The notes beneath the pieces are model-generated. The model was given only the letters and a program-made list of their open reading frames with translations, was not told where the DNA came from and did not search any database. A DNA stretch of 64,000 nt from Dipteris shenzhenensis (lineage: Eukaryota). A program made the translations under genes and the position numbers. This document shows, piece after piece, positions 803-61,633 of this stretch; position 1 is the first letter of the stretch; every line of letters begins with the position of its first letter. The stretch is taken from assembly GCA_047967505.1 (NCBI GenBank), contig CM106538.1. One strand, written 5' to 3'.

Positions 803-1149
803 GATATCGAGCTAATCCACTCGTGATATGCTAGGGTGACTGTTGTGCATTTATGTCACCGACTTGTTAGCTGAAGATGCAGTTGGTACACCGCCCACGA
901 ATAATAGCTGGATGATAGCTATCCTTATCTACTCTAGTTCGTGGCTCACTTAGTATGCCACCTTAGTTAGCTGAGTTTGGTTTGAGACCCACATATAGGG
1001 TTCTTCTATTTCTTTGTACTAGAGTTGTTTTGGCTTACACAACTAAGAAGAGGAAAACTGTTTTTAGCCTCCACCTTTGTGTATTCCCCCATTGTGTATG
1101 TGAGAAAGCCGCAAGTGAGCTTCCTTCCTTCTCTCCCACTATCTTCATA
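797..1149 (+). repeat. 3' LTR of Copia family A
   Basis: Starts TGTTGAGATATC directly after the PPT; closely similar to the LTR at 61634-63013, which ends ...CTCTTCACA before a PBS. Confidence 0.9.
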
Positions 1150-2745
1150 GGTAGAGGTAACTTTGAATCCACATGTAGTGTACTTTGATCTGATAGCCAA
1201 AAATCAACAAGGTCCTTTGAAGGGAATTCGAAGGACCAAAGGGCCTTTGAAGAAGTGGAGCACAATTTGGATTGGTAATCTGCAAAGGAAACTAGAAAGA
1301 TATCCATCAAGCTTTGGTTGTAGGTTTGAGAACATGGCACAAGGCCACAAGGACAAAAGTGGATATACAAGGTTAACTACAAGTTTTAACTTGACAAAGT
1401 ATAAGGCATAATTGGTGGCTAGAGGGTTTGCATAGACAAAAAATATTGACTATGAAGACTTTCAAGCAAAATGAAGAAGATCCAAGTTGCCATCACAATG
1501 GTAAATCCATTCATAATGATCCATCTTCCAACATGTCCATTCATAGTATATCATCATTCAACATGTCTAAATAAACATGACAACAATGAGGTAATAGCTC
1601 AAATTCAAGATCTAGGGTGACAAGTTTTGTTGACTTTGGAAGGTACTATATGGGTTGAAATAGGCCCTAAGAGTGTGGTGTACTAGAGGAACAACTTTTA
1701 TACTTTAAAAGATTCACTCTGATATGGTGTCAATCATATGCAAACCCATATATCCATTCGAAGGGGGACAATAAATTTATGGTGATCTCATACATGGATG
1801 ATGTGATCATGATGGGGAATCATGAAGCAAATATTGAAGGCGAGAAGACTTTTCTACATGTAGACTTTGATATGAACATACTCAATATGCTTCATTACTT
1901 TCTCAACATTAAAATTTGGAAGGAGAATGAAGGATGTTCTCAACCCATGACTGATCCTACTAGAGATAGTGAAGTGATTTTGGATGCAAGAGTAAGGATA
2001 GATTTACTCCAATGGAGGTTCTAAGACCAGTGAGACTGAGCATGGAAGATGCTACTCAACTATAGTAGACTCAATTGTTATTGACCATAGTTGCTTGTGA
2101 GTTACTATATTTGATAAATACCCAACCCAACGTCACATTTGCTAATATAAGATTGTTGTTATAAGCTTGCATCTACACTAGAGGAGACACACTAGAAGGT
2201 TCAACTTCATGTGCTTTAGTGTTTGATGAGTACCACCCAATATGCAAAAGTTCATTACAAGTCCATCGAGGATCGATTGAGGTAGGCTTGTAGAGCTTAT
2301 CACTACTTGATAAAGCAAACTTACATCATCACCAAGTCCTTTTCTAAAGGATAATTGGAACATCTCATGCGATGATTAGACATAGGCCCACATTCAATAA
2401 TTAAGAGGGCATGTTGGAGACCTCTACCTCACATGTGAGTTCCCATTTGAGGAGGACAAAGAGGCAAGTGGTGATTTGTATTCATTATTTTGAGTGAATC
2501 CAAGTATGAATGGGTAATTTGGTCTTCATATTGAAGGAGAATTATGAACCCAGATTGTGGTCCGAAAGATAGGAGTCCCAAATTAGATTAGGATGATAGG
2601 TAAATCTATGAGCATCCTAAATTAGTATTTCAAAGACAAGAGTGTAGAATTTCAAGCTAGAAGTTGCACAATGGAATCAAGCCATCAACTAGAGCTTGAA
2701 AGTAGAGAGGGGCTTAAGTAACATGTAAGCAATGGACCCATACAG
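1150..2745 (+). mobile_element. Highly degenerate Copia RT/RNase H remnant with PPT and probable LTR from 2412
   Basis: Remnant motifs KYKA*LVARGF (~1396-1430), YGLK*A (~1648) and YMDD (~1791); purine tract TTAAGAGGGCA (2401-2411) followed by TGTTGG; right boundary approximate. Confidence 0.65.
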
Positions 2746-2780
2746 AGATCGAGTTTTTTTTACCACCCACTTGGGTACAA

Positions 2781-2885
2781 CTCTGGGGGCCGGGGGGGGG
2801 GGGGGGGGGTCACTGACAAATATGCAAGCATAGCACATGGGTTCAACATTTTTGTACATTTTTTACAAACAAATGGGTACCATTT
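2781..2885 (+). repeat. GGGGGGTCA-type transposon-end motif with an expanded G18 tract
   Basis: C(G)18TCACT...ATAGCACATGGGTTCAA resembles the reverse complements of 6010-6160 and 26800-26910, and the direct copy at 34364-34405. Confidence 0.45.
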
Positions 2886-3579
2886 AAAGGGGGTATTCAC
2901 ATATTGCAGAATTCCTAACATGATATCAAAGAGGTAAAGGTGTTTGAAAGGTTCCCAGCATAGTGTTAGAGCTTATCATGTTCCCCAACATGGTATAAGA
3001 CTTGCACATACCATCCATTGGACCTACCTACACATTGTGGGTTTTTCCAACATTAATAATATTGCGTGCAACATAGGTGTGTCTCTAACGTGTCTTGCTA
3101 GTTTAGTAAAACAATCAACATATGAAAATCATGTAAGTACTACAATTAGAGTATACACTCCCAAGTTTAACTAAAAGTGTTTTATACTCCTAAATAACTT
3201 CAAAACCAATTCAAAAAAATGAAATTTGAAATTATTTTAATAATTTAAAAGAGATATTCCATTTAGAAATTCCCACCTTGCAACATACTCCAAAAAGATC
3301 ATATTATTTATGTACATCGACCTACATCTTGTTTTCTTGGACATTTCTCTTGAATCAATCGTCAGATTGCATACATGGTTTAAAAAGGGGAAAAGAGAGG
3401 GTTGTGGGGTTGTGTCGGAAGAAATTCTTGTAATTGTGATGAATAATGATTCTATATTGGAAAAATTTAATGAATCTCTTGATGGCTTCTTATAATTTAT
3501 TTGTGCAATTTTGGTCAAGGTCCAAGTCACATTCAGGACATTTCTAGACCTCTCAATTTATGGAGCAACTAGTCTAAAT

Positions 3580-3755
3580 GATAAGAATTCATAAAAATAT
3601 GCCTCCTTTGTCATGTCCTCGATTTGAATTGGAAGGCTTTCCCATGAATAATGTTCCAATAATAAGAAATCACAGACATGCTTCCATCGTCAAGTACTCA
3701 CTTTTGGGATTGTTTTGAGGTTTCCGCATATGTAGGTCCAATTTTAAAATTATAA
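3580..3755 (-). repeat. Two degenerate tandem copies of the last ~95 nt of the reductase CDS, in its 3' UTR
   Basis: After the stop codon the minus strand repeats TATAATTTTAAAATTGGACCTACA...GAGTAC...GGAAGCA...TTCTTAT, then again ...GAAAGCC...GGAGGCATAT...TTCTTAT, matching the end of exon 5. Confidence 0.75.
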
Positions 3756-5534
3756 GAAATGATGTAGATATGCCTCCACCGTCGTGTACTCAAGCAAAGG
3801 GTATAGTTGTGAGGCTTCCCCACAAGTAGGTTCAATGTTGAAATTATAAAGCTCACCAAGGTAGAAAATTAAGTGAAAGTGACCCATCACTACCTTGCGA
3901 TATAAGTCAGCATCTGAGTGACAAAGAGGTGTTAGTGCACAATAATAGTGTTGTTAAAACCATCTCGTATATGGTAAGCTTAGGCGGTCACTTAAAGGAG
4001 AATTAAATGAATAGTATAGCACTTTCGAGAGTGACACTCAATGAAAATATAGCGCGATTGAGGATGCACTAATTTTCTAAATGCATACACCACTTTATAC
4101 ATTTATCAGAGCGTTTAGCTAATGAAAATATGGCAAAGGAAAGACCTTTCATCTCCTCAAGCCACAACTTCTCGGGGATGTAGGTCTTCTCTAGCACTTG
4201 TCCACATTGCTTTTCCCATATGGCTACAACCTCGTTCTGAGAGAGAATGTTTGCAGGTGGGCGAATGTATACTGTGGTGTTGACGACGCGAGGATCCTCT
4301 ATTGTCTTAATTACGTAGGTTCCAACATCCTCTTCGGCGACCCAAATCACTGCAACGAACGTTTCAGCCGTAGTATCAATCCTTCTTACCTTGATTTTCT
4401 ACGGAGGATAGACATGATTTTGAGAAACATGGATTTACATTTCGGGCATGACAACTGAAGATACGATTATTGTTCAATTTTCGTTTATGCAGAATTCAAA
4501 CAGGCACTGTTTCTGAGGCTAGTGATGCCCGTTGCGACCATTTCAGCGTGCACATCAGGCAATGGCTTTGAAGCAAATATATACGAGTACTCCTAGCTGA
4601 ATTTGAGATCGTTGCATATTATACAAGACCTTCTCGTCATCGCACCAGCAGCGACGCTTGTAAGTAATTTAGCAATTCACAAAATGAGTAACACACCCAA
4701 AATTTAAAAGGCTCACCCTTCTTATTGCCGTCTCCGTAGATAAGCACGTTGTCTGCAGGTGGCAAGAACCGGCTAAACTGCGCCAGGCCGGCTAAAAAAT
4801 AGCCCGCAAAACAGTTGGCAGAAACGTATGTGTGCGGAATTCCGGCTGACTCTATAGCACGCCGTACTTTCCGCTTGTCGGTAAAAACATCACCGACGGG
4901 CGAAGGACAATGCGAAACGCGGTCCGGGTCCATGCCAAATTCGGAAGGCAGAAACCTCTAGTACGTCCCCACGATGAGACAAGTGCCAGTCAGATTCAAT
5001 AAATTGCTTTGAATTTATAGCAAACATCAGGGACAGATCAGAAGCAGTACCTTAATATTTCCAGCTTCGTTGATAGCCTCGACGAGCTTGAGTTGATCCA
5101 GCAGCCGGTCTTCAGCGATGGCTGATATCACAATGTCCACCTGCTTTAGAGCCTTTACTAGGGTGCTTAAATCGTGAAGGGAGCCCTGCTATTCAAGCAA
5201 ACATGAACACATTATCGTTTGTATGGAACAGAGGACCCCATATTTATGTTCAGATCCTATCTTGAAATGCTCCCACGCGGGCTACCGTAAGTATGATATA
5301 TTTGATATATTATCAAACGCATTCCGCCGAAAGGATTGAACAATTTCTTACCTCTAGAAACCTGGCGCCAGATTTCTTGAGGGACATCAGCTGGCCGACC
5401 TTGTGCACATCCGATGCAACATCCGGGCGTACGAGCAGGAAGGTGGGATGACCAGCTGCCAAGCTTGCCCGTGCAATGTGCTTGCCGATGTATCCAGTAG
5501 CACCCACGATCAGCACACGGGCGGGCGTCGTCAT
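3750..5534 (-). CDS. NmrA-like / PIP-family NADPH-dependent reductase, most like pinoresinol-lariciresinol reductase (308 aa, 5 exons)
   Basis: Exons 5534-5352, 5185-5051, 4957-4717, 4349-4146 and 3913-3750; all introns GT-AG with consistent phases; 927 nt total. Motifs GATGYIG, RFLPSEFGMDPDR, DKRKVRRAIESAGIPHTYVSANCFAGYF, EEDVGTY and EASQLYP..EYTTVE. Confidence 0.93.
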
Positions 5535-43699: not shown

Positions 43700-44530
43700 A
43701 CGACTAATCCTCGCTACCTTCCACACTCCCTTCTGTGCTCCCTTCTACGCCTCCTTCCTCGTCTTCCTCATCGTCTTGTGCACGGGCCTGTAAACAAGGG
43801 ACAACATATATTCAATGTATGAAAAATCAAATCTTTACTTATAATTTTGGCATTATTTAATTACTTTCAAATACCTCGGGGGCCGCTCTGGGTATACTGC
43901 TCCTCAGTAATCAACCCGTCATCATAGAAGTGCCTCCATGTATCTCCTCTGCAATGGTGGCGGTGGTAGGCTATCTCCACAGGAGTAGGGTATCTGCCCA
44001 CGATCTCAAGCTGCAAGACGACACACTTTGCGGAGGGATTAGTACAAAGAAACAACCTCCTAATAAACTACATAAGCAATATAATTTGAGATCGATACTT
44101 ACAAATTGGGCCTCCCATGATTCAACACCCCCTGCTCCAAAATGCGCTCTTTCATATTCCTCCATCTGGATCCTTCGTGCCTCCACGTGCTGCAAACTGG
44201 GGTCCTCCCTCACTGACTTCATTGCTTTCTTCCACTCACTCTTATGAGCGGTGTGGGGCGGGCCCCTTGGTGGTTGACCTCCCTCAAGCCTGGCAAGCTC
44301 CACTAGTGCCTGCCTCTTAAGCGAAGATCTTTTATTGCCAAGTATCGTAACAATCTTTGACTTGGCCCATTTATCTGTGAACTGGCGATTGGGGGGGTTA
44401 GGATGCCTAGAGTGAACAGCAACGAGGGTCTCATCAGCCAACCTCTTGGCTGGTCTTTGAAGTGGATAAAGCGATCTCTGTAATTGTTAGCAATTACAGA
44501 GCGCATGAAGGCCATGATGTCCTTCCCCTG
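43700..44530 (-). pseudogene. Spliced TnpA/Ptta-like transposon accessory gene fragment
   Basis: Exons ~44528-44103, 44010-43875 and 43787-43704 with GT-AG junctions; HFGAGG..W..QF|LEIVGRYPTPVE resembles En/Spm TnpA-like proteins; acidic tail; frameshifted. Confidence 0.5.
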
Positions 44531-44857
44531 CATATATGTGCCACCTCATCATTCCACATCATAGGGACTGTTGGAGCCATGTCATCACACCTTGCCACCT
44601 TGGCATACCTCGTCAACATTGCCACATCACCAATCCCTCCACCTCAATTTGCCATGTCAATCTACCACCTCATGAATGCCAACTCATCATGCCACATCAC
44701 ATTTCCACGTCATGGAAGAGACTCATATATTCCACACCATATTGCCACATCATCACCATGCATGGTGCCACATCAGCCACATGTATACACATCATGATGA
44801 TGGCGAGCCACATCATCAACATGCATGGTAAGTTATACATGCGTGTGATTTGAGTGC

Positions 44858-45196
44858 GTGAGGCATAGAATACCTCGATCGAGGTTTATGATCACGATGT
44901 GCATGAGGCATAGAATACCTCGATCGAGGTTTATGACCGCAATGTGCATGAGGCATAAAATACCTCGATCGAGGTATTCTATGCCTCGATCGAGATTATG
45001 ACCACAGTGCACGTGAGGCATAGAATACCTCGATTGAGGTATTCTATGCCTCACGCACATTGCCGTCGTGAGGCATAGAATACCTCGATCGAGGTTTATG
45101 ACCACGGTGTGCGTGAGGCATAGAATACCTCGATCGAGGTTTATGACCGAAGCATAGGATACCTCGATCGAGGTTTATGACCACAATCGAGGTATT
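44858..45196. repeat. Left subterminal array of the TACCTCGATCGAGGT palindrome (~45-bp units)
   Basis: About 9 copies of GAGGCATAGAATACCTCGATCGAGGTTTATGA; includes a 44-bp near-perfect palindrome at 45012-45055. Confidence 0.95.
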
Positions 45197-45439
45197 TAGA
45201 GTAACCACAAAAATTAGTTTCAAAACAAAATCCAACGTAATTTAGTAGCCGATTATTTTCAATCTTAGCACCTTCTCCACCAATAATAATCAAGAGCAAT
45301 CTAGTGGATGAGTAAGAGCAATCTAGTGGATGAGTTGAGGCTCTCTATAAGACACCACGTTTTGGTTCATTTCACCCATTCTTAGCCATTCTTGCCTCCC
45401 CATCACTTTGTCACACCTTCCATCCTACTTTCATTGAGA

Positions 45440-48366
45440 ATGGGTTCTCAAAGCCGTAGAGCTAGTAGACGTGAAAGATGTAGGAAACCCCCCCCTAAAA
45501 TCTCATTGACGAGGAGCGCAAGCGGAAGGCTCATGAGCGTAAGAGAGCCTCTAGAGTTCGAGCTCGCACTGCCACCACTGATCCACCTCCACCTCTACAT
45601 CCCACCTCCACCTCCACCCCCACCCCCACTCCCACCTCCATTGTCCCCCCCTCCACATCCTCGTCTGCTCCCCTACCTCTAGCATCTGCCCTTCCCCTAG
45701 CCACCTACATTTTGCCCTCCACCTCTACCTCTTCCCCCTCCACCCTCCTGCATCCCCCTCCCCCTCCCCCCGTCCCCTTGGTGCCTCCCTTTCCCCCTCC
45801 ACCCAACCATCTCCCATTGATCCCCTTGCCCCACCTTGCAGTAGCAGTGTTGCTTCACGATGTGACTTGCCGAATCCACTATCCGTTGTCGTACTAGCAA
45901 GATCGTGCAGTCTTTTTTTAGTGACCTCATGCCAGCTTCGCAATCTGCTCTTCTCATGTCCCTAATTGATCACCCTGACTTGGTAGAGTGTAGGAGGCTT
46001 GCTGGTCTTGGTGCACGTAGAGATAGGGTTGTATGTAGTGAGGTCCTTAGCAGTGTTCGATGTTCCTATGCTTCTATTAAGCATAGGAACTCCACTGATG
46101 CCTTGGCAATACGTCATGATATTGTGGCTGCCATTAGTAGACTTCATATGATAGGGCATGTGTGTACTGCTTCACGCCTTCTTCAGATTGCACCGCACAC
46201 ATTGCGAACAAGCATGATTAGGAGGCAGAGTCTAGAGGATAGTGAGACTGATGCCCTTTGGGATTCGAGTGGTCCTGCATGCACCTCACAGCGATCGATT
46301 GTTGGATGATTCCACTAGGTCCTTCATACAACAGTTTTGGGAGGAGCATTGCAGAGCGTCCCAGGTGTTCAAGAAGGCATTGCAAAAGAGGGTGTCACGT
46401 TATGTGTACATTGAGCATGGTGCATGTTTTTTGGAGTGTACCCAGAATGAGTTGTACACTCAGTTTGTAGAGGCACACCGAAAGTTCAGGATTGGGCAAA
46501 GGTCATTTGAGTGATGCAGGCCATGGTTTGTGCAATGCTCTCAGGAGCATGACACATGGTGTTGTTACTACCATGTGGATTTTGGATTGATGTATGACAT
46601 ATTCCGTTCCCTTGATGGTCATAGGGGAGTGGTTTCTACTAGCCCTTGTGACTTCATTCATTCCATATTGTGTACACGAGATGGCAATGCTTTATTCCAC
46701 TCCCTTGATTGTGTGGAAGGTAGGTGTACTTTGTGTGGTGACTTTGCTAGAGTGCCACGAGTTGCACTAGATACTTGTGATGTGTAGATGGTTCATTGGC
46801 AGTAGTACGAGTACAATACCCTGACATTAGATGGTGGTGCACAGTCGAGGAGGTTGCAGCTTGTGGGGAAGGAGACACCACGTGTTGTATTCATTGACAA
46901 TTTTTGAGGGAAGCTGTACCGCTTCATACGCCACTCGCACACTACGAAGTGGGAGGATCGTTAGTTTTGTGCATGTTTGAGGGCATTTCCTATAGGGGTG
47001 GTTGTCTCAGTGGTGGAATTTGCAGAGAATTATACCTTTGCACCACAGCATGAGATCCAATCGGAGTATTATTTCTCAGAACAGGTGATGTGTGATTGAG
47101 TTATTGGTTTTTTAATGGCCTCATTATATTGAATTATTTCAATAGCCATATTTTTTTTCAATGCCATATTGTAGGTTGCTATATTTGTGCACATTAGCTG
47201 TCATCATGCACAGGCTCATGTGGATGGCATTGATAGCACCATGGACTCACGCATCATTGTGTGAGAGTATCACTTCTACATTAGTGATGATCGATCGCAT
47301 GATGCCCATTTTGTGCAGCATTGCTTCACTTTGCATGATAGTTTCTTGAGGGATCATGGTGTCACATTGCAGCAATGCTAGATCTGGTCAGATGGCTATG
47401 GTGGTCAGTTCAAATCTGCTAGACAGTTTTATTGGTTCTGCAAATGGCACCGTGATACAGGCATTCCAATCATATGGAGCTACTTTGAGACAGGGCATGG
47501 TAAGGGAGAGCACGATGGTGCAGGTGCTTGCGTGAAGCGTGCTTTGCATCGATACCAGTTGTGTCACAGTGCTGATCGCTTCAAGGATGGACATGATGTG
47601 GTGCAGTGGTGCAGCCACACTAGTGCTATGTCCTCCTTTCAGTCGCGTGACAATAGGTTGGTGAGCCGATATTTTTAATGCATGGACATTGGGAGTCTTG
47701 ATCGGTCTAGGCCTTTTGATTGTTGTTCAGTGTCTGGCACTCTTGATTTCCATTCCATCAGGAGCATAGGTGAGTCTCACCCTGCGATCTTTTCTCAATG
47801 GTTTGCATGTTTTTGCTCTGCATGCATTGATGATGATTGGGGAGGTGCTCTATGATACCATGGGTTGATCCATGGGCACGACAAGTGCTTTCTCCCTTCC
47901 AGCCTTGGGAGGAGGTACATGATGATGATCAGGATACGGGATTCAATTCCTCTAGAGATTATGACCAGCTTACAGATATTTTGTGTATTGGTGATATCTT
48001 CGCGGTCATTGCTTCAAAGGGCAAGGAGGAGGGTTTGGATTATTACTTGTTGTAATGCTCTATGGTGAATAGTGTGCTGAATGAGGATACAGTGGATGGG
48101 CATGGGATCCACTTCAATGCTCATAGCATGATCATAGGTGGCCACTATTTTTAGTAGATACAGAGGCGTGGTCGCTATATTGAGTTCCAGGAATACATGG
48201 TGGATCAGGAGGCATAATGTATTCTCATCTTGTTGTTGCGATCAAGATTATTTTGAGTCGTGTTCGCATTCGCAAGTCGACGTCCACTCCATGATGGCGC
48301 CTTGCAGTGGAGGATCATGAGAGCATACTTGCAACTATTGGCATGAGAGTCGATCCTGAGAAGTAG
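45440..48366 (+). pseudogene. Sola2-like DDD transposase, intron-containing, with stops and frameshifts
   Basis: Manual translation gives IGQRSFE*CRPWFV..DTWCCYYH; VV(E)FAENYTFAPQHEIQSEYYFSEQ (47010-47084); GT-AG intron 47085-47174; YHFYISDDRSHD..FVQHCF; IWSDGYGGQFK (47382-47414); YFETGHGKGEHDGAGACVKR (47481-47540). Confidence 0.82.
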
Positions 48367-48495
48367 CACATTACATATCATAGTTTTGGGATCATCAATT
48401 GATCTGATAGATTTTTTTTGAGTATCACTAGTTGATTACATATTTTTGTATTCGATATGTATAGGCTCACTATGTGATATTTGAAGCTTTGCCTC

Positions 48496-50085
48496 TCACT
48501 CAATATGGCGTGCCTCCTCTACTCGTGCCTCACCACCTGGCATGAAATCACCATATGAAAAGTGTCGCGGAACACACGCTGCAACCACTGACGTATCAAC
48601 ACCCTCCTGTTGTAGCAAAGCTCTCTGTGCCTCCTCCCTGTAGTGCTCTGTCAAGACCACGTGGGCATATGGATCAATGGTCTGACGATGACGAGGATAT
48701 AGATCATCCATGCCTAGTCCTCTGTATGTGGCCACATCAATGTCAGCAAAGCATACAGGGCACACTGATCGTGCCACCATGTGGCGGGTCATGCAATGGA
48801 GATGTGCGATGTGGTCGCACCCTCGTCCAAACCACCCTATGGTGTTAAAATCCTCATGGCAAAGGATGCAAGTGGAGGTACGAAGCCTAGCTATGACTGG
48901 TGTGTCTATGGGTGTCCTAGTCGGCACATCTACAGAAGGACCGGGGTACAAGGCCACACTGGGGTCGATCCTATGGCGAGATGGATCACGACTAACATGT
49001 CTCAACTGTAAAATATAGTGCTCCGCTTGATGGTAGTCTATGCGTGTCTGAATCCTCTGCTCCTCCAAATCTGCCTCCAATAGTCATACATGAGACTCCA
49101 TATCCTGTCGCAATAGATGTGCTTGCAATGCAAACATGTCGCATACATGGTGAGAATTAACCAAAAAACTTCAGTTCAAAACACGCAACAAAAAAATAAA
49201 CTAAAATAATCAGAATAACTAACCTCACCCCTAGACTCGGCCAACAATGCCTCCAACTCTGCAATCCATGTGTCTCGAGTCTCCAACTCATGCTGAGGCA
49301 TTGTAGATATGGGAGGTGGTGTAGATGTGGGAGGCTCCATAAATGTGGGAGGTGGGGGAGGTGGAATCGAAAGTGATCTCAATAGGGCAGAGACCATGTT
49401 GTGCAAGGATGAGGCCACTAAATGAACATCCCCCTAATCCATCCTCCAACAATTTGCAATGTCGGTGCAAGGATAGTGTGCAGCTCTGGTGCCTCGCGTT
49501 AATGCCGAACACCTTCAGATTGACGCTCCTGATGCCCCATCCTACCATGTCTTGCTCCTTTGATCCTGGATGGGTACTAAGGTAGTCTACCCGATGACCA
49601 AGCACAAACTCGACATATAGTTGCATGGCAAATGACCTTGCTATCTGATGGTTGTGACGCAATCGACCACCATTCACAGTGAGATATCTCGGATAAATGT
49701 GTGCTGCTATGACGGGGTGCCTACAACGTAAAATATAAAAGGGCAGCCTTGATCGTGGTCGCATCGCCTCAGTGTAACGATCCCAAAACATATCCTCTAA
49801 GGCCTGCCTGTGAGGTGACTCACGCTCAAACAACTCTCGAATGGCTCTCCAATCCAAGCCATGACCAGTGATCTCTGCCTCAGCCTATGCCTAAAAGCTA
49901 TGCCTAAAAGGTATCCAAAATGTCCTCAACTGTGTCTAATCGACCTAGAGCATCAATGACTAATTCTAGACTCGCAACCAAGTGAGGGGGTGCCCTAGCA
50001 TCCTGCAGTGCCCTCATCTCAGCTCTCAAAATCACTATCTACATATGAACAGTGGTGCCAGAACCTATGCACTGGCTAGCACATG
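48496..50085 (-). pseudogene. Transposon accessory gene: N-terminal domain + Pro-rich linker + coiled coil + RING-H2 finger
   Basis: C-x2-C-x13-C-x-H-x2-H-x2-C-x10-C-x2-C at 48870-48751; intron 49223-49105 joins LEALLAESRGE|DMESHV*LLEADLEE in frame; upstream coding block ~49560-49860. Confidence 0.75.
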
Positions 50086-50659
50086 CACAAAAAAAACACA
50101 TGGAAATTAATATTCTATTTGGGTAATGAAAATAATATTCTATTCAATGGGACTTAATAATCTATTTACGTAATAAAAACTTTTAGCTATCCAATTTCGA
50201 TTGAATTTTTGCAAAAGCTCATGACAAGGTTTCATGGAATCACATAAGTCTTTGTATTTGTCTATGTAACTATATCCATATATAGATCTACAACCTTCCC
50301 TAGTTCCCTATTTCTATAGTTTCATGTGCCACCTAAAGGGATTGCTAGCGACATGACCTACCCTCTCCTATTTGTTTGATTGATTACACTTAGTCATGTA
50401 CTCCTTCATGAGGTAGGATGTCATTGGGATCATCCTATGCACCTAATGGTAGATGGGCCAAATGTGTGGCTATGGCTACAACAGTGCTATGTTGCAAATG
50501 CAACACATGCACTCCCTACATGCTCTAAGTTGCGCCACTCTTCAATGGAAGATGCACACATAATAGTTATTTAACGGTGTTATTGAAAAAGGGATTTAGA
50601 TGTACATCCTTAGTCTTATTTCATTTTCAAAAAAATTTCAAACTTTTTGTTAAATGCTA

Positions 50660-51230
50660 CACTTCCCTAATTTGAAAAATAATATAAAAACTACTTAATC
50701 TCTTTTTTAAAATAAACGAAATAGATGATTTTAAAAAACAAAATATATATGTTTTGACATTTAAATAAAAACTTCACTAACTTGAAAAATAATATAAAAG
50801 CTACTTTAAACTCTTATTTTCTTTTTTTTAATAGATGATTTCTAAAAACAAAATTTAAACGTTTTTATATTTAATTCAAAACTTTACTAATTTAAAAAAT
50901 AACATAAAAACTACTTTAATCTCTTTTTTTTTAATAGATGATTTTAAAAAACAAAATATATACTTTTTAACATTTAAATAAAAACTTCACTAACTTAAAT
51001 AACATAAAAGCTACCTTAAACTCTTATTTTCTTTTTTTTAAAGATGATTTTTAAAAATAAAATTTAAACATTTTTTTAGTTAAATAAAAATAGCACTAAT
51101 TTGAAAAATAACATAAAAACTACTTTAATTCCTTCTTTTCCAAATGGATGATTTTAAAAAACAAAATATATACATTTTCACATTTTAAATAAAAACTTAC
51201 ATAATTAAAAAAATAATTTTAAAAAACTTT
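50660..51230. repeat. AT-rich tandem repeat, ~105-110-bp units with alternating A/B variants
   Basis: CTAA(T/C)TT(G/A)AAAAATAA(T/C)ATAAAA(A/G)CTAC recurs at ~50668, 50777, 50887, 50990 and 51096. Confidence 0.88.
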
Positions 51231-51429
51231 AAAATGCATTTGAGATTTTGAAATATTTTATAATTAAATTAGATATTCCTATAAACTAAAATTTAAATAA
51301 ATTTTTACCAAAAAAAATGCTACATTAAAAAAACGTTACGTGGAATCTCCCGCTCCGTCCATCTCGGTCGTTGTTCGTCGCTACCGCAATTCTGTCGAGC
51401 TCCCATAAATCCGTCGATTTTGATGAGGA

Positions 51430-52137
51430 GGAGCTCGATCGAGGTTTGAAGAATGAGGGGGCTCCCTCTCTTTATATATGAAAATTTAGGGTTTCAGTAC
51501 CTCGATCGAGGTATTTCACATGCCACATACACATCGATCCATCATACCTCTATCGAAGTATAGACATGCCACGATACTTTGATTGAAGTATTTGACATGC
51601 CACATACACATCGCTCCATCATACCTCGATGCCTCGATCGAGGTATTCGACATGCCACATACACATCTGTCCAGCATACCTCGATCTAGGTATGGACCTG
51701 CCACGATACCTCGATCGAGGTATGTCAACTACCAGCCGGATGCCACATACCTTGATCATGGTATTGGACATGCGGCCAAGTCATCGATCCAGCATGCCAC
51801 GATCGAGGTTTCTGGACTTGCCACAGTACCTCGATCGAGGTATGTCATCTACCACGTCAGATGCCACATAACTCGATCGTGGTATTTGACACGACCGACG
51901 TCATCTATCCATGATACCTCGATCGAGGTATGTGGACTTGCCACAATACCTTGATCGAGGTATAGGTGGCTTGCCACGATAACTCGATCGAGGTATAGGT
52001 GGCTTGCCATGAGACCTCGATTAAGGTATAGGCTCGGTTGGTGAAAGAAAGTCTAGGACCTCGATCGAGGTATTGGCTTGGCTTGGTTGTCCTCGTGTGT
52101 GAATTTCATTGGAGACGATACCTCGATCGAGGTATTT
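51430..52137. repeat. Right subterminal array of the TACCTCGATCGAGGTA palindrome
   Basis: About 16-17 perfect or CpG-decayed copies separated by short GCCAC-containing linkers. Confidence 0.95.
51468..51494 (-). promoter_or_regulatory. Candidate core promoter of the RING accessory gene (telo-box + TATA)
   Basis: The minus strand reads AAACCCTAAATTTTCATATATAAAG, followed by a GC-richer exon-like block ending in a GTAACG donor (~51338) before the AT-rich tract. Confidence 0.45.
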
Positions 52138-52399
52138 CACACCAAAGCAAAACCTTTGTATTTTCACTCGAGGGGGTGTCACACTCACTCAAAAGTGGTC
52201 CGGAAGTGGACACCCTTAGCTTGCTACCTCCCTGTAGCTCCATCAAAGAAGTGCTAAGCACCTTCAGAACTACTCCCGATAGCTTCCCATTGCTCTCAAA
52301 GAAAAATAGGATAGAAAAATCCAAAGGAGTCACCTTTTCAGCAACAAAATCTCCATGCCATACCAATGGAGCTCCATGACAAGATACAGTGTAGTAGGC

Positions 52400-53150
52400 C
52401 CAAATAGGGACGTCCATTAGGACCTGTCGAGAGGCTACTACATTGGAGCTATCCAAGGTGAAGGAACAAGCCTCTTCAAAGTGCAGAAAGCCCCAATTGT
52501 GTGGAAGCAACTTACCCTGAGGGCTAAGCGAATCTTCGGTGACACTTCCATCCCTGGACCTTCTAAGAAAATCCCTAGTTTAGATGGAAGCGCTTTCAAA
52601 GGTAAGTTGCCTACCGTGAAGGTTTACAATGGCTTACTCAATGAAACGACCAAGTGGCTTTTCTCTTGTGCTGTTGTCGGATATATTCATGGCCCTCGTC
52701 CTCCTGCAATGTTTCTAGAGGGTTGGGTTATAAACTTTTGGATGCGTAAAGGTCTAAATGTTACAAGTATCCATTTCGTTACGAATGGATACATTGTTTT
52801 TCTTTTCAAGAAGTCTGAGATGGCGACCGAGGTCATTCAGAAAGGGACATGGACTATCAGGAACCAACCCCTCAGTTTTGGGACCCATTGCTTAATCCTG
52901 ATTTACCTACACCTTCCAACGCGCCCATTTGGGTTGAATTTTCAAATCTTCCTCTGTCTCTTTTCCCCCATCCTGGAAGCATTATATCTCCCTCTAGGTT
53001 AGTTTCTAGGATTAGAGATGGAAAGGTTCATCAACCCCACAAGTAATCCTCCAGCTTGTGTGCTAATGGATTTGGTTGTTGAACCTCCCAATGCCATTTG
53101 ATTGCTGGGTGGGGATGGATCTGAACTTTATTCAAAATGTATTCTACAAA
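52400..53150 (+). pseudogene. L1-type LINE ORF1 fragment (DUF4283/RRM-like)
   Basis: AVVGYIHGPRPP...WVINFW...NGYIVFLF...VIQKGTW, then frameshifted WDP...APIWVEFSNLP, a typical plant LINE ORF1 pattern. Confidence 0.8.
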
Positions 53151-53559: not shown

Positions 53560-54820
53560 CATGCCAGTATGAAAATGCCCCTACACAATGAATCCTAAAT
53601 ACACATAGTGAGGGAAGAAATACAAAATCTCATAAATGTAGGATTATTCCATGAGATTGAGCATACAGGCTGGGTGTCACCCATCGTGATAGTCTTAAAG
53701 AAAAGTAGAAACATTAGAGTGTGCATGGATTTGAAAAAATTTAATGCTGCCACTAGATGCGACTACTACCTTTTGCCATTGTTCTAGAAAGGGTAGTCGA
53801 AAAGGAAGTATCTAGCTTCCTACATGGACTTTCAGGTTACAACCAAGTGTCAATCGCCCCGCAAGATCAACACAAGACACCTTCGCAACTCAATGGGGTG
53901 TGTATGCAAATAGGGCTATGATATTTAGATTAACCAATGCCTCTATTACCTTCCAACGGATGATGATCACAATATTCAAAGAGTATCTGAGAGACTTTGT
54001 GGAAGTATTCTTGGATGACATCTACATGAACTCGAAGTGGTATGACCATCGGAAATACCTCACATGGCTCCTCCCCCCGAAATGCCACTTATATTCCATA
54101 TTCCTCAATCTTCATAAGTGCTAGTTTTGTGTCAAACATGGTGTCATCCTAAGCCACATAGTGTCCCAAAATGGAATAAAATCTAAGGACCATAATAAAA
54201 TCAAACTTATCTTGGAGTTACCACCTCCCACCAATGCCAAGGGAGTCCAACAATTTATTAGCCACACGGGCTATTACAGGAGATTCATCTTGTTCTATGC
54301 GAACATAGCCCGCCCATTATACAAACTACTAGTATCCTTTGAGTGGACCGAGGAATGCCAAACATCCTTTGAAACCCTCAAACTAGCTCTAACCACCGCA
54401 CCAGTGTTGAGGTCACCCAACTGGAATTTAATATTCCATGTCCATATTGATGCCTCTAACTTTGCCATCGGATGTGTGTTAGCGCAGCCCGGGGAGTATA
54501 ATTTAGATTACCCGATATACTTTGCGAGCTACCAACTAAACGAGGCCAAGGTTAACTACACTAGCATGAAGAAGGAAGGTCTCACCATGATCTATGCAGT
54601 AAAGAAGTTTAGGCACTACTTGTTGGCTAACAAGATTATCTTCTTCGTGGACCATCAAGCATTGCTATACTTGGTAAACAAACCCTGCATGACTGGATGC
54701 ATCACTAGGTGGATGCTGACCCTTCTAGAGTTCGACTTCACAATCGCTACAAGTAAAGAAAAAACCCAAGTCCTGGCCAACCACCTATCGAGGATCCCGA
54801 ATGATGAAGCACCAACGTGA
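53560..54820 (+). pseudogene. pol: Ty3/Gypsy RT + RNase H remnant
   Basis: WVSPIVIV.KK..RVCMDLKK, SGYNQ, FLDD, HIDASNFAIGCVL and AVKKFRHYL; related to 34510-35180. Confidence 0.92.
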
Positions 54821-59169: not shown

Positions 59170-61633
59170 ATATCATAAAGTAGCTTATGCAACCAAGCTA
59201 CCTCACATGTAGCCATTGCTGCACCCCTGTACTCAGCCTATGTGCTAGACAAGGCAATTGTAGGCTGTTTCTTACTACTCCAAGTGACTACAGCGCTCCC
59301 AAAAGAGAACATATATCCACTTGTAGATCGTCTAATAGAAATACTACTAGCCCAATCAGCATCAGTGTATCCATGCAACTATATCTGAACCCTAGTCTCA
59401 TAAAATAGTCCATACTGCAATGTGGAATTCACATACCTTAGTATCCGTCTAAATGCGGTTTCCTTGGAACCTGCATAAACGGACTTACCAACCCAACAGC
59501 ATAACTCAAATCTGGCCTGGTAATAGTCATATAAATCAAACTTCCTACTATGCGTCTATACATAGTAGGGTCTTCTAGAAGCTCACTGCATCTGCACTCA
59601 ATTTCACATTCTACTCCAAAGGAACTAAAATAGGCTTACAGCCTATCATCCCATATTTGGACAGCATGTCTAATCCATACTGCCTCTGCAAAAGCCATAT
59701 CCCACTTGTGGATCTAATCACCTCAATGCCCAAGAAGTAACATAGCTCTCCCAAATCCTTCATCTCAAACTTCTGCTTCAATAGCATTTTCACATGAAGG
59801 ATATCTTCAAAACTATAACCTATGATGATCAAATCATCAGCATAAATGACAAGTAGCATAATGCCTTTCTCTGTTTTTCTCACATAAAGTGAGAAATCTG
59901 CCTTGGGAATCTGAAAGACAATAGTGATAAGATACTGTCCTATCTTGTCTGACCATGCTTTGGGTACTTGCTTCAAGCCATACAAGGCTTTCTTCAACTT
60001 GCAAACAAACTTAGGATGAACAGCATGAACATAACCTGGTGGCTGCTCCATATAGACCTCTTCTTGCAAATCACCATGCAAGAAAGCATTCTTTACATCC
60101 ATATGATGTAAATACCATCCCTTTGATGCAACCATAGCAATGACTACTCTTACGATTCCCATCCTTGCAATTGGACTAAATGTTTCTTCATAATCAGTGC
60201 CATATGTCTGTGCATATGCCTTGATGGCTAATCTTGCCTTGTATCTATTCATAGAACCATCTGCATTGTGCTTCACCTTATAAACCCACTTGCAGCCAAT
60301 TGCATTGTTGTCTTTAGGCAAAGGCACCAATTCCCATGTGGCATTTACTGCCAAGGCATCCATTTCTTTATCCATGGCTTTCTCCCATTTTTCTTTTCCC
60401 ATGGCTTGCTTAAAAGAAGTGGGTTCTAGTTCAAAAGGAGTATCACTTTGACCATATAGGCATAGTGAATGGTTGTAAATCCATCATATTTCAGCCTATC
60501 CATAGGATACCTACCTCCAGTAGACCTGTGCAAAATAGGCTCACTACCAAGTGCTCTCAAAACACCCCTTGTCTTCCTTACTCCAGTTGTAATAATAGAA
60601 GGAATACCCAACTCATCATCAGGGCTCCTGTTCTGAGCCACTGGATTCACCATCCACATAAGAGTGACCTGCATTCACATCAACCATGAGCTGATATACT
60701 TTCTCTTTTCCTTTTTATGATACTTGCATACCCCTATTTGCATTGCTTTGAGGAGATCCTTCTGATCTCAATCTACCTGTCCATGGTAAAGTATGTGAAC
60801 CGTTGTTAGAGGACACTATAGGTTCACTAATATTTTGTGATTGCTGCTGTGAATTCTGTGTAGCATTACGATTTTGTGCATCTACATCATCAATCACATT
60901 TACTGGTTTATAACAGCTGCTCATCTCATCAAAAACATCTCTGTTCACTATAAACTTACGAGTAGAAGGATTATAGAATCTTTACCCTTTCTGCTGTAGA
61001 GAATAACCAATAAAGATGCACTTCTCAGCTTTTGGATCCAACTTGAATCTCAACTCATCTGGCACATGAACATAGGCAATGCAACCAAAAAGTTTCAAAT
61101 GAGAAATATATGGTTTCCTACCAATATACCTCTCCTCTGGCATCATGCCATGTATTGCTACAGTGGGAGTCCTGTTCATTATGTAGACTATTGTAGCAAC
61201 TGCTTCAGCCCAATAATAATCTAGCAAGTCTTTTTTGTTGAGCATGGCACGAGATACTTCTCCAATATGCCTTTTTTTCCTTTCTGCAAGTCCATTTTGT
61301 TGTGGGGTATGATTGCATGAATATTGCTGCTTTATGCCATGCTCTTGTAGGAAACTTGCAAACTCATTTGAGAGGTACTCTTCCCCTCCATCTGGCCTTA
61401 GGCATTTTATTTGTAGGCCTGTTTCTTTTTCAACCATAGCTTTAAAAGCTTTGAAATGCCCAAACACTTCAGTTTTCTTTTTCATAAAATACACCCAAAC
61501 TTTGATGCTATAGTCATCAATAAAAGTGACAAAATAATGACAGCCTCCAATAGATGTAGCTTTAGTAGTCCACACATCAAAGTGGATGAATTCCAATGGC
61601 CTCTTACTCTCTTAAACATGTTTAGGAAATGGT
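59170..61633 (-). mobile_element. Degenerate Copia family A internal region (IN-RT-RH), truncated at both ends
   Basis: HFDVW/FIDD/QNGLAER, HMDVKNAFLHG and YADD; the RNase H part is nearly identical to the reverse complement of 284-505. Confidence 0.92.

Follow-up and report, generated by a model that had tools for sequence, protein, structure and literature searches.

A decayed two-gene transposon candidate of Dipteris shenzhenensis with a convergent RING-H2 gene

Introduction

The few accessory genes that DNA transposons carry tell much about the conflict between mobile elements and their hosts. Here we ask whether a DNA transposon can carry a ubiquitin ligase as such an accessory gene. The question is raised by a locus at positions 44850-52169 in a stretch of 64,000 nucleotides from Dipteris shenzhenensis (GenBank assembly GCA_047967505.1, contig CM106538.1), and this whole stretch is called the window throughout. 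The locus holds a decayed gene for a transposase on the plus strand and, convergent to it, a minus strand gene that ends in a RING-H2 finger. On balance we regard the locus as a single, dead cut-and-paste DNA transposon of about 7.3 kb that had two genes, a judgment made jointly with the model of an element-borne RING-type E3 ubiquitin ligase and offered with some reservation.

Results

Two arrays of one palindrome enclose a convergent gene pair

Sites of the palindrome core ACCTCGATCGAGGT were counted in the window, allowing up to two mismatches. All 24 sites lie in two arrays (Table 1), nine at 44872-45193 and 15 at 51432-52133, and the core is absent from the rest of the 64 kb. By chance 0.04 sites are expected, and none of 100 shuffles reached 24. 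A single palindrome of 14-16 bp is common to both arrays. Between them lie the transposase gene, the second gene and an AT-rich tandem array, and otherwise nothing notable.

The original prediction, made from the letters alone, had described two arrays of the same palindrome around a plus strand transposase gene and a convergent, spliced minus strand gene with a perfectly spaced C3H2C3 RING. It had also proposed a TATA-like box near each array and a pseudogenised copy. These features were all recovered: the stop codons of the two genes are separated by 129 bp, the eight zinc ligands of the RING are in place, and both TATA-like boxes were located. Splicing of the minus strand gene was reproduced as a model, in which a GT..AG intron joins two exons in frame. 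Decay is evident from stop codons and frame changes in both genes and from the loss of the first catalytic Asp of the transposase. The stop codons occur at a similar density in both genes (about 1.3-1.4 per 100 codons), which fits one shared age. The right TATA-like box lies about 1.37 kb upstream of the candidate ATG of the accessory gene, with the AT-rich array of 110-bp units in between.

Terminal inverted repeats (TIRs) and target site duplications (TSDs) were searched by comparing the left with the right flank, and the best result was an 8-bp inverted match, TTTGAGTG, at 44849 and 52186. A scan for inverted repeats with duplications in 21 sources gave nothing convincing, and neither the window copy nor the relatives showed a TSD. 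A 40-bp inverted repeat of the related locus L045 was rejected as a TIR, since it starts at the contig end, and the point at which the related loci L002 and L006 diverge has no matching left end. An 11-bp hairpin at 44476-44501 was discarded because it is no more than chance allows. A TGCCACATCA-like motif is rich in 44518-44850, directly left of the left array, and a similar TGCCAC motif is found in the right array on the same strand. Because of this resemblance the left end of the element could lie before 44850; the interval 44400-44933 is likewise covered by contigs of other copies.

Table 1. Positions of features in the window and in related loci (coordinates of related loci follow the locus name)
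Feature	Position	Strand	Description
Left subterminal array	44854-45193		9 ACCTCGATCGAGGT cores; 34-65 bp units in both orientations
Exact tandem duplication	45292-45335	+	22 bp, 2 copies, 100% identical; directly before the transposase TATA-like box
TATA-like box TATAAG	45346-45351	+	89 bp upstream of the transposase ATG
Transposase pseudogene, predicted DDE/RNase H fold	45440-48366	+	ATG 45440; stop TAG 48364-48366
Transposase intron	47085-47174	+	90 nt, GT..AG, in frame; relatives called as open reading frames, e.g. P0004, read through
Spacer between convergent stop codons	48367-48495		129 bp
Accessory exon 2	48496-49104	-	helical/heptad-like stretch, linker, RING-H2, 85-aa tail; exon start 49121 in the alternative splice model
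RING-H2 finger	48751-48870	-	C-x2-C-x13-C-x-H-x2-H-x2-C-x10-C-x2-C; 8 of 8 ligands intact
Candidate accessory intron	49105-49223	-	119 nt, GTTAGT..ACAG; alternative 49122-49228, 107 nt; both in frame
Accessory exon 1, decayed	49224-50101	-	candidate ATG 50101
Orphan N-terminal domain	49561-49860	-	block ..RC.HP...AHIY.RY....GG....Q....FAMQL..EF.LG..VDY...; 40-46% identical to P0027 and P0028
AT-rich tandem array	50661-51216		period 110 bp, 5.2 copies; between accessory gene and right palindrome array
Right subterminal array	51432-52133		15 ACCTCGATCGAGGT cores; 33-120 bp units, also with TGCCAC motif
TATA-like box TATATAAAG	51478-51470	-	inner edge of the right array
CGATATATCG arrays	L003:1118-1221; L004:1641-1744; L006:628-731		4 copies each; a few hundred bases upstream of the transposase
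TTCGGCCGAA arrays	L014:10-137; L016:666-773		4-5 copies; a few hundred bases upstream of the transposase
Second open reading frame (ORF2) of L027	L027:7029-8732	-	568 aa; convergent
Second open reading frame (ORF2) of L031	L031:3686-5302	-	539 aa; convergent

The plus strand gene encodes a predicted DDE transposase

The coding sequence of the plus strand gene contains 12 in-frame stop codons and at least three frame changes, two of which match positions where contigs of other copies differ by 1 nt. Glu stands in place of the first catalytic Asp (VVEFAENY vs. VVDFAENY), which fits a dead copy. Residues 93-919 of the longest relative, P0004 (942 aa), align to 45866-48351, and the start MGSQSRR... 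resembles the start MGNVRNRGRK of the intact relative L006. The N-terminal part crosses a C-rich, Pro-rich low-complexity tract at 45580-45800 (TCCACC-type repeats). For a 98-aa open reading frame (ORF) at 47382-47675, 26 proteins with an expectation value (E) of <=0.001 were found among 33 candidates, with identities of up to 65-69%. The only named relatives of the transposase come from Cryptomeria japonica and Taxus chinensis.

Pfam searches with seven pieces of the window and nine transposase relatives yielded no credible match, and the transposase profile gave no match to the sequences of solved structures. PF25273 (DUF7869) was considered as the family of the transposase on the basis of one neighboring Atlas cluster (score 0.94) and was set aside, as hmmscan did not confirm it. 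The other Atlas neighbors are clusters without a family, and a literature search found no paper mentioning DUF7869.

An AlphaFold model of the core was built for the relative L006 from a 27-sequence alignment (predicted local distance difference test, pLDDT, 74.5; predicted template modeling score, pTM, 0.75), with the strand order b1-b2-b3-a1-b4-a-b5-a. The structural search with VIA-align was headed by retroviral integrase cores (Z 9.6, root-mean-square deviation 3.4 over 152 residues), Mos1 (Z 9.1) and IstA (Z 9.1), with Metnase, TnsB and Sleeping Beauty among the further top matches; Z scores of 9-10 are only somewhat above the stated background of 7-8. All 50 matches listed by VIA-align are RNase H-fold proteins (integrases, transposases, Argonaute/PIWI proteins and Prp8). 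Foldseek returned weak RNase H-fold matches, none at E <=0.001. Across the 27 sequences there is little or no variation in the motifs DFAENY, WSDG and GHGKGEHDG; of their acidic residues, D199 (GKGEHDG) is invariant, and D69 (DFAENY) and D158 (WSDG) are nearly so. The core model places D69 on b1, D158 where b4 ends and D199 where the following helix begins. Since all of the listed structural matches have the RNase H fold and the acidic residues are on the expected elements, we accept the plus strand gene as that of a DDE transposase with an RNase H fold.

The minus strand gene ends in a RING-H2 finger

Exon 2 of the accessory gene contains an ORF at 48496-49083, which ends with the stop codon of the gene (48496-48498), and one in-frame TGA at 49084-49086. 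Its finger has the C3H2C3 spacing of the RING-H2 consensus, C-x2-C-x(9-39)-C-x(1-3)-H-x(2-3)-H-x2-C-x(4-48)-C-x2-C. When the window and 80 related loci were translated in six frames (about 660 kb; C or H allowed at the fifth ligand), no other C3H2C3 or C3HC4 match appeared.

Comparison with the sequences of solved structures showed that the best 38 of the 50 matches listed are RING-finger proteins. They are led by RING-H2 E3 ligases such as synoviolin, RNF38, RNF24, RLIM and RBX1, with the top match at E 7e-4, and all eight zinc ligands align to synoviolin. Residues of RINGs that contact the ubiquitin-conjugating enzyme (E2) are a hydrophobic residue after Cys1, Trp or a similar residue after Cys6 and Pro after Cys7; in the window finger, Ile follows Cys1 and Pro follows Cys7. 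A second copy of the RING exon, P0030, is identical in 60 of 95 residues and is decayed, with four of the eight ligands changed from Cys to Tyr.

Exon 1 is conserved in diverged lineages

In the window, exon 1 is interrupted by stop codons at about 50041, at about 49900 and at further positions between 49430 and 49550, and its frame changes at least twice, near 49890 and 49560; at the latter position, contigs of other copies differ by 2 nt. The upstream minus strand region (49291-49884) has no Pfam match. When the decayed N-terminal domain was compared exhaustively with 1.84 billion representatives by phmmer, P0027 and P0028 emerged as the two true relatives, both of them short ORFs from Logan/ENA contigs. 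A third match is a repeat protein and was rejected as a relative. The clusters of P0027 and P0028 together with a profile search added P0031, P0032, P0078, P0079 and P0080.

Three of these proteins are intact exon-1 ORFs with the same Met start (P0031, 261 aa; P0032, 258 aa; P0078, 259 aa), and P0079 and P0080 are further, partial ones. The pairwise identity of the intact three is only 47-60%, with conservation concentrated in one block, and all three run out of frame within about 20-30 codons of one position, where the window has the intron. The finding that about 260 codons were kept open at such identities suggests that exon 1 codes for a protein under constraint, and we infer from these comparisons that it is real coding sequence in at least three lineages.

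All exon-1 relatives come from anonymous Logan/ENA contigs, with no annotated host protein among them. For the transposase, in contrast, the same kind of database does return annotated proteins of conifers (Cryptomeria, Taxus). Pfam searches with P0031 and P0078 found nothing, and the exon-1 alignment detected no related locus in viral contigs. In prokaryote genomes the one candidate, L081, was judged to be a chance match, as it consists of 40 residues anchored on the search pattern and lies on a contig of a metagenome-assembled bacterial genome with 59% G+C.

Transposase relatives have their own arrays and variable second genes

Metagenome contigs were scanned with the transposase alignment, which resulted in 80 loci (596 kb); 87 of 590 pattern matches were confirmed. 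Five of the 80 loci have palindrome arrays of their own upstream of the transposase (a palindrome of 10-14 bp, repeated exactly four or more times; Table 1), and L027 has a non-palindromic 173-bp array in this place. The palindrome of the window is absent from the 81 fetched loci. That relatives have their own, differing palindrome arrays suggests that binding sites and transposases co-evolved. With the arrays of these loci, short repeats at the ends are seen to be a trait of the transposase family. This supports the view that the element extends to the right array of the window and has the RING gene inside.

Two loci of one subfamily, L027 and L031, are 86% identical in their transposase DNA and colinear, with a variable spacer. 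Their convergent ORF2 proteins are 69% identical; they are conserved in the N-terminal part, contain a long acidic tract and are helical in the C-terminal half. The decayed locus L048 is a very distant relative, with a transposase about 27% identical. Downstream of this transposase and on the opposite strand, it contains a weak match to the N-terminal domain of the accessory gene (tblastn with P0028, 24% identity over 86 residues, E 5e-5 for that locus alone; hmmsearch, E 0.0023 over 13,885 ORFs). Clusters of the telomere-like motif CTTAGGGATTAGG lie at 78-1258, 4409-4816 and 9555-9959 of L048, forward on the left and reversed at the two places on the right, and the weak homologue sits between the inner and the outer reversed cluster. 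L037, a second copy of the L048 element, is colinear past the inner cluster. A RING remnant is not visible in L048.

Taken together, these sequences suggest that a convergent second gene recurs in this transposon group and that its identity varies. The gene with the N-terminal domain may be old in one branch; the RING, to date, is known from the lineage of the window alone. Our data point to a large, Pfam-less transposase family with short-palindrome end arrays in gymnosperms and other non-angiosperm sources. One of the loci, L001, has an uninterrupted transposase ORF of 1106 aa at 1016-4333 (+) that looks intact and intron-free, and the ORF of L007 has 943 aa.

Other copies in public sequencing runs

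Contigs of four public runs from four studies were placed on the window (221, 32, 62 and 2209 contigs; run shares 0.05-0.11). In all four runs contigs lie on both the transposase and the accessory part, with 80-99% likeness, showing that the DNA of both genes is repeated. The contigs, among them those of runs X1 and X5, tile the accessory gene across the intron from one exon to the other (rows 49009, 49158 and 49227), and most of the spacer region is covered (rows 48405-48421 and 48533-48559). Run X1 has no contig on 50541-51875, which is a lack of cover only.

Two candidate observations from the runs were set aside. In X5 the depth of the two genes differs and in X1 it does not, and contig depth cannot rank genes; a joint of 45043 to 52204, as expected for a deletion derivative, is present in only two contigs with 20-nt sides, which is too weak. 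Where the window was compared with the contigs of X1, differences with A/T in the window and G/C in the contigs dominate (A>G 91 and T>C 100 vs. C>T 29 and G>A 32). This bias is as expected from decay by C-to-T transitions of methylated DNA.

Neighboring sequences

On the right side of the element, an ORF at 52421-53002 (+) has a weak match to DUF4283 (E 7e-5). Further ORFs, judged by eye from their translations, resemble a gypsy-like reverse transcriptase (54125-54820, +) and a copia-like reverse transcriptase with integrase (59611-61611, -).

Discussion

A model of the intact element

We think that the RING gene probably belongs to the element, and we infer that both exons form one gene in intact copies. 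Gene 1 would encode a transposase that is about 940 aa long and has a DD(E/D) core of the RNase H fold. It would most likely bind the palindrome arrays at both ends, probably as a dimer because of the dyad symmetry and the number of the palindromes, and would cut at the element ends. The protein of gene 2 is predicted to have about 500 aa, with a short Pro-rich N-terminus, a lineage-specific helical domain that has no known relatives, a helical and possibly coiled-coil stretch spanning the intron, and the C-terminal RING-H2. Such a protein could act as an element-encoded RING-type E3 ubiquitin ligase to the benefit of the element. Its substrate would be chosen by the orphan N-terminal domain and may be the transposase itself or a host factor involved in silencing or repair, whereas recruitment of a host E2 would fall to the RING. 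That a DNA-transposon lineage encodes a stand-alone RING-H2 ubiquitin ligase, convergent to its transposase, which marks a host silencing or DNA-repair factor or the transposase, is a tentative proposal, possible rather than probable in our estimate.

If the model is true, a transposon with its own ubiquitin ligase would represent a new class of accessory genes, the first E3 ligase as a separate accessory gene of a cut-and-paste transposon, and a transposon counterpart of the hijacking of the ubiquitin system by viruses. Since the window copy is dead, the locus is of interest because it points to a family, and not as a functional gene. The giant, repeat-filled genomes of conifers are a natural place for intact family members, and if intact copies prove active, the RING gene would be an unusual helper gene of a transposon.

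Weighing the alternatives

Several observations weigh against this model and have to be set against other explanations of the locus. Most of those from the relatives agree with the capture of a passenger, in which one transposon sublineage took the RING gene, or the RING exon alone, from a host without any role in transposition, as in Pack-MULE or CACTA transduplication. The original prediction had named the joint occurrence of RING gene and transposase across families and species as a check, and this fails in the distant relatives: a RING-H2 is present in none of the 80 related metagenome loci, and 79 of them have no match to the accessory gene. The intact relative L006/L002 appears to have a single gene, as the only ORFs of at least 70 aa in the 1.9 kb after its transposase are four of 70-75 aa, for which homology was not searched. 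The L027/L031 subfamily carries a different convergent ORF2 (hhalign probability 0.1% against the exon-1 profile), and because this ORF2 is unrelated, the RING gene is at best specific to one lineage. Among 96 candidates from 5.8 billion protein clusters, the decayed P0030 is the one homologue of the RING exon; this rarity is weak evidence either way, because ORF calling on short contigs rarely reports an exon without a start codon. Sola2 elements can carry variable 3' passenger genes, e.g. Fanzor, and swap these regions, according to the cited sections of PMC3627910. A neutral passenger is, however, not expected to leave about 260 codons of exon 1 open in three or more lineages with identities of 47-60%, and the N-terminal domain has no host homologue among the 1.84 billion representatives. 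Recent neutral capture, which the original prediction had named as its refutation, is thus argued against. Furthermore, the gene is complete and not a fragment, with a promoter-like box, an intron and a stop codon, and its RING is divergent, unlike that of a typical host RING-H2 gene captured recently. We consider capture unlikely, although it deserves to be kept in mind.

A composite locus would explain a different group of observations. Gene 2 could come from another repeat beside the transposase, or the two minus strand ORFs could be separate and the splice an artefact; the joining of the exons is a splice model with two alternatives. The ends of the element are undefined, with no TIR or TSD to delimit it, and it may be nested or composite. 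No second copy lies in the 64-kb window, in which many repeats are nested in one another, among them fragments of copia and gypsy elements as well as the DUF4283 ORF. In the contigs of the four runs no single contig was seen to bridge the transposase and the accessory gene, and homologues from protein searches cover exon 1 or the RING exon and never both. Such split matches are nevertheless explained by ORF calling on short contigs, which cannot return spliced proteins, and the frame-keeping GT..AG intron of 107-119 nt is located exactly where all exon-1 homologues run out of frame. Both genes are enclosed by one palindrome that the window lacks elsewhere, the stop codons are close together, and contigs of other copies tile the accessory gene from exon 2 through the intron to exon 1. 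A composite origin therefore appears quite improbable to us.

The RING could also be borne by the element and not be a ligase; the finger would then be a zinc-stabilized protein- or DNA-binding module of a transposition cofactor, for instance an adaptor that assembles the transposase on the palindromes. Second proteins of two-gene transposons are usually DNA-binding or regulatory, like the Myb-like protein of PIF/Harbinger and TnpA of En/Spm. The Pfam scores of the finger are below the curated cut-offs (zf-RING_5, E 1.8e-4, 21.8 vs. 27.9 bits; zf-RING_2, E 2.5e-4, 21.7 vs. 27.3 bits), and it has a His at the position where many active RING-H2 ligases carry Trp. For the orphan part of the protein, the structure model of exon 1 (alignment A3, four sequences) is a low-confidence helix with a pLDDT of 36.6, and an Atlas search with P0031 gave no usable match. 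On the other side stand the complete set of ligands with canonical RING-H2 spacing, Ile and Pro at two positions as in E2-binding RINGs, and active RING-H2 E3 ligases as the closest solved sequences. A function of this kind seems improbable to us, and we retain the element-borne ligase as the working model.

Comparison with known systems

In MuDR of maize the transposase gene mudrA and the gene mudrB are convergent, with each promoter in a terminal repeat. The window locus resembles MuDR, two-gene PIF/Harbinger and En/Spm in that a transposase and a second gene lie inside one element. It differs from MuDR in that the transposase has no MULE match in Pfam and the second proteins are unrelated. 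To our knowledge, none of the accessory proteins of MuDR, PIF/Harbinger and En/Spm is a RING finger. Accessory proteins of DNA transposons that act on host silencing are known with VANC of the Arabidopsis VANDAL elements (Mutator-like); these proteins bind DNA in a sequence-specific manner, bring about a loss of methylation and are not known to be RING fingers. They are the functional analogy behind the anti-silencing idea for the window gene, and by this analogy gene 2 might have an anti-silencing role.

The finger itself has its best solved-structure sequence matches in synoviolin/HRD1, RNF38, RNF24, RLIM and Arkadia, with E from 7e-4 to 6e-3, and in several of these ligases the RING is near the C-terminus, as well. 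The likeness to RING-H2 ligases is confined to the finger of 40-50 residues, whereas the rest of the protein has no detectable relatives outside the transposon lineage. The RING of RAG1 and Chapaev is of the C3HC4 type.

In RAG1 and the Chapaev-type elements of the Transib superfamily, a RING with ubiquitin-ligase activity is tied to a transposon-derived DDE recombinase, and the ancestral transposon had two genes, as stated in the cited part of PMC4411706. The ligase activity of the RAG1 RING is a precedent for the use of such a module by transposon-derived recombinases. In these elements the RING forms one protein with the transposase, fused to its N-terminal part, whereas in the window the RING-H2 is at the C-terminus of a separate protein; likewise, the RAG1L and RAG2L genes are head-to-head (PMC4411706) and the window genes tail-to-tail.

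'Sola2-like', the name given to the element by the original prediction, is a tentative label only. Sola transposases are DDE cut-and-paste enzymes whose RNase H domains have no Pfam family, as in six other superfamilies (PMC5751038, section cited), and the window transposase and its relatives are likewise without a Pfam match. According to the passages cited, Sola is found in non-angiosperm plants, e.g. Sola1 in Physcomitrella, and is reported to be absent from angiosperms (PMC9033089, PMC9804982). The 4-bp AT-rich TSD and the TIRs of 12-21 bp given for Sola2 in the cited part of PMC3627910 were not found at the window element. A RING gene is not mentioned for Sola in the cited parts of PMC3627910, PMC5751038, PMC9033089 and PMC9804982.

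Kapitonov and Koonin (2015) noted, in the section cited, no RING fingers in known transposable elements outside the Chapaev/RAG1 lineage (PMC4411706). Our search, which covered the open-access full-text literature only, yielded no description of a transposon with a RING-H2 accessory gene. Taken together, the element is likely a two-gene DNA transposon with a new type of accessory gene.

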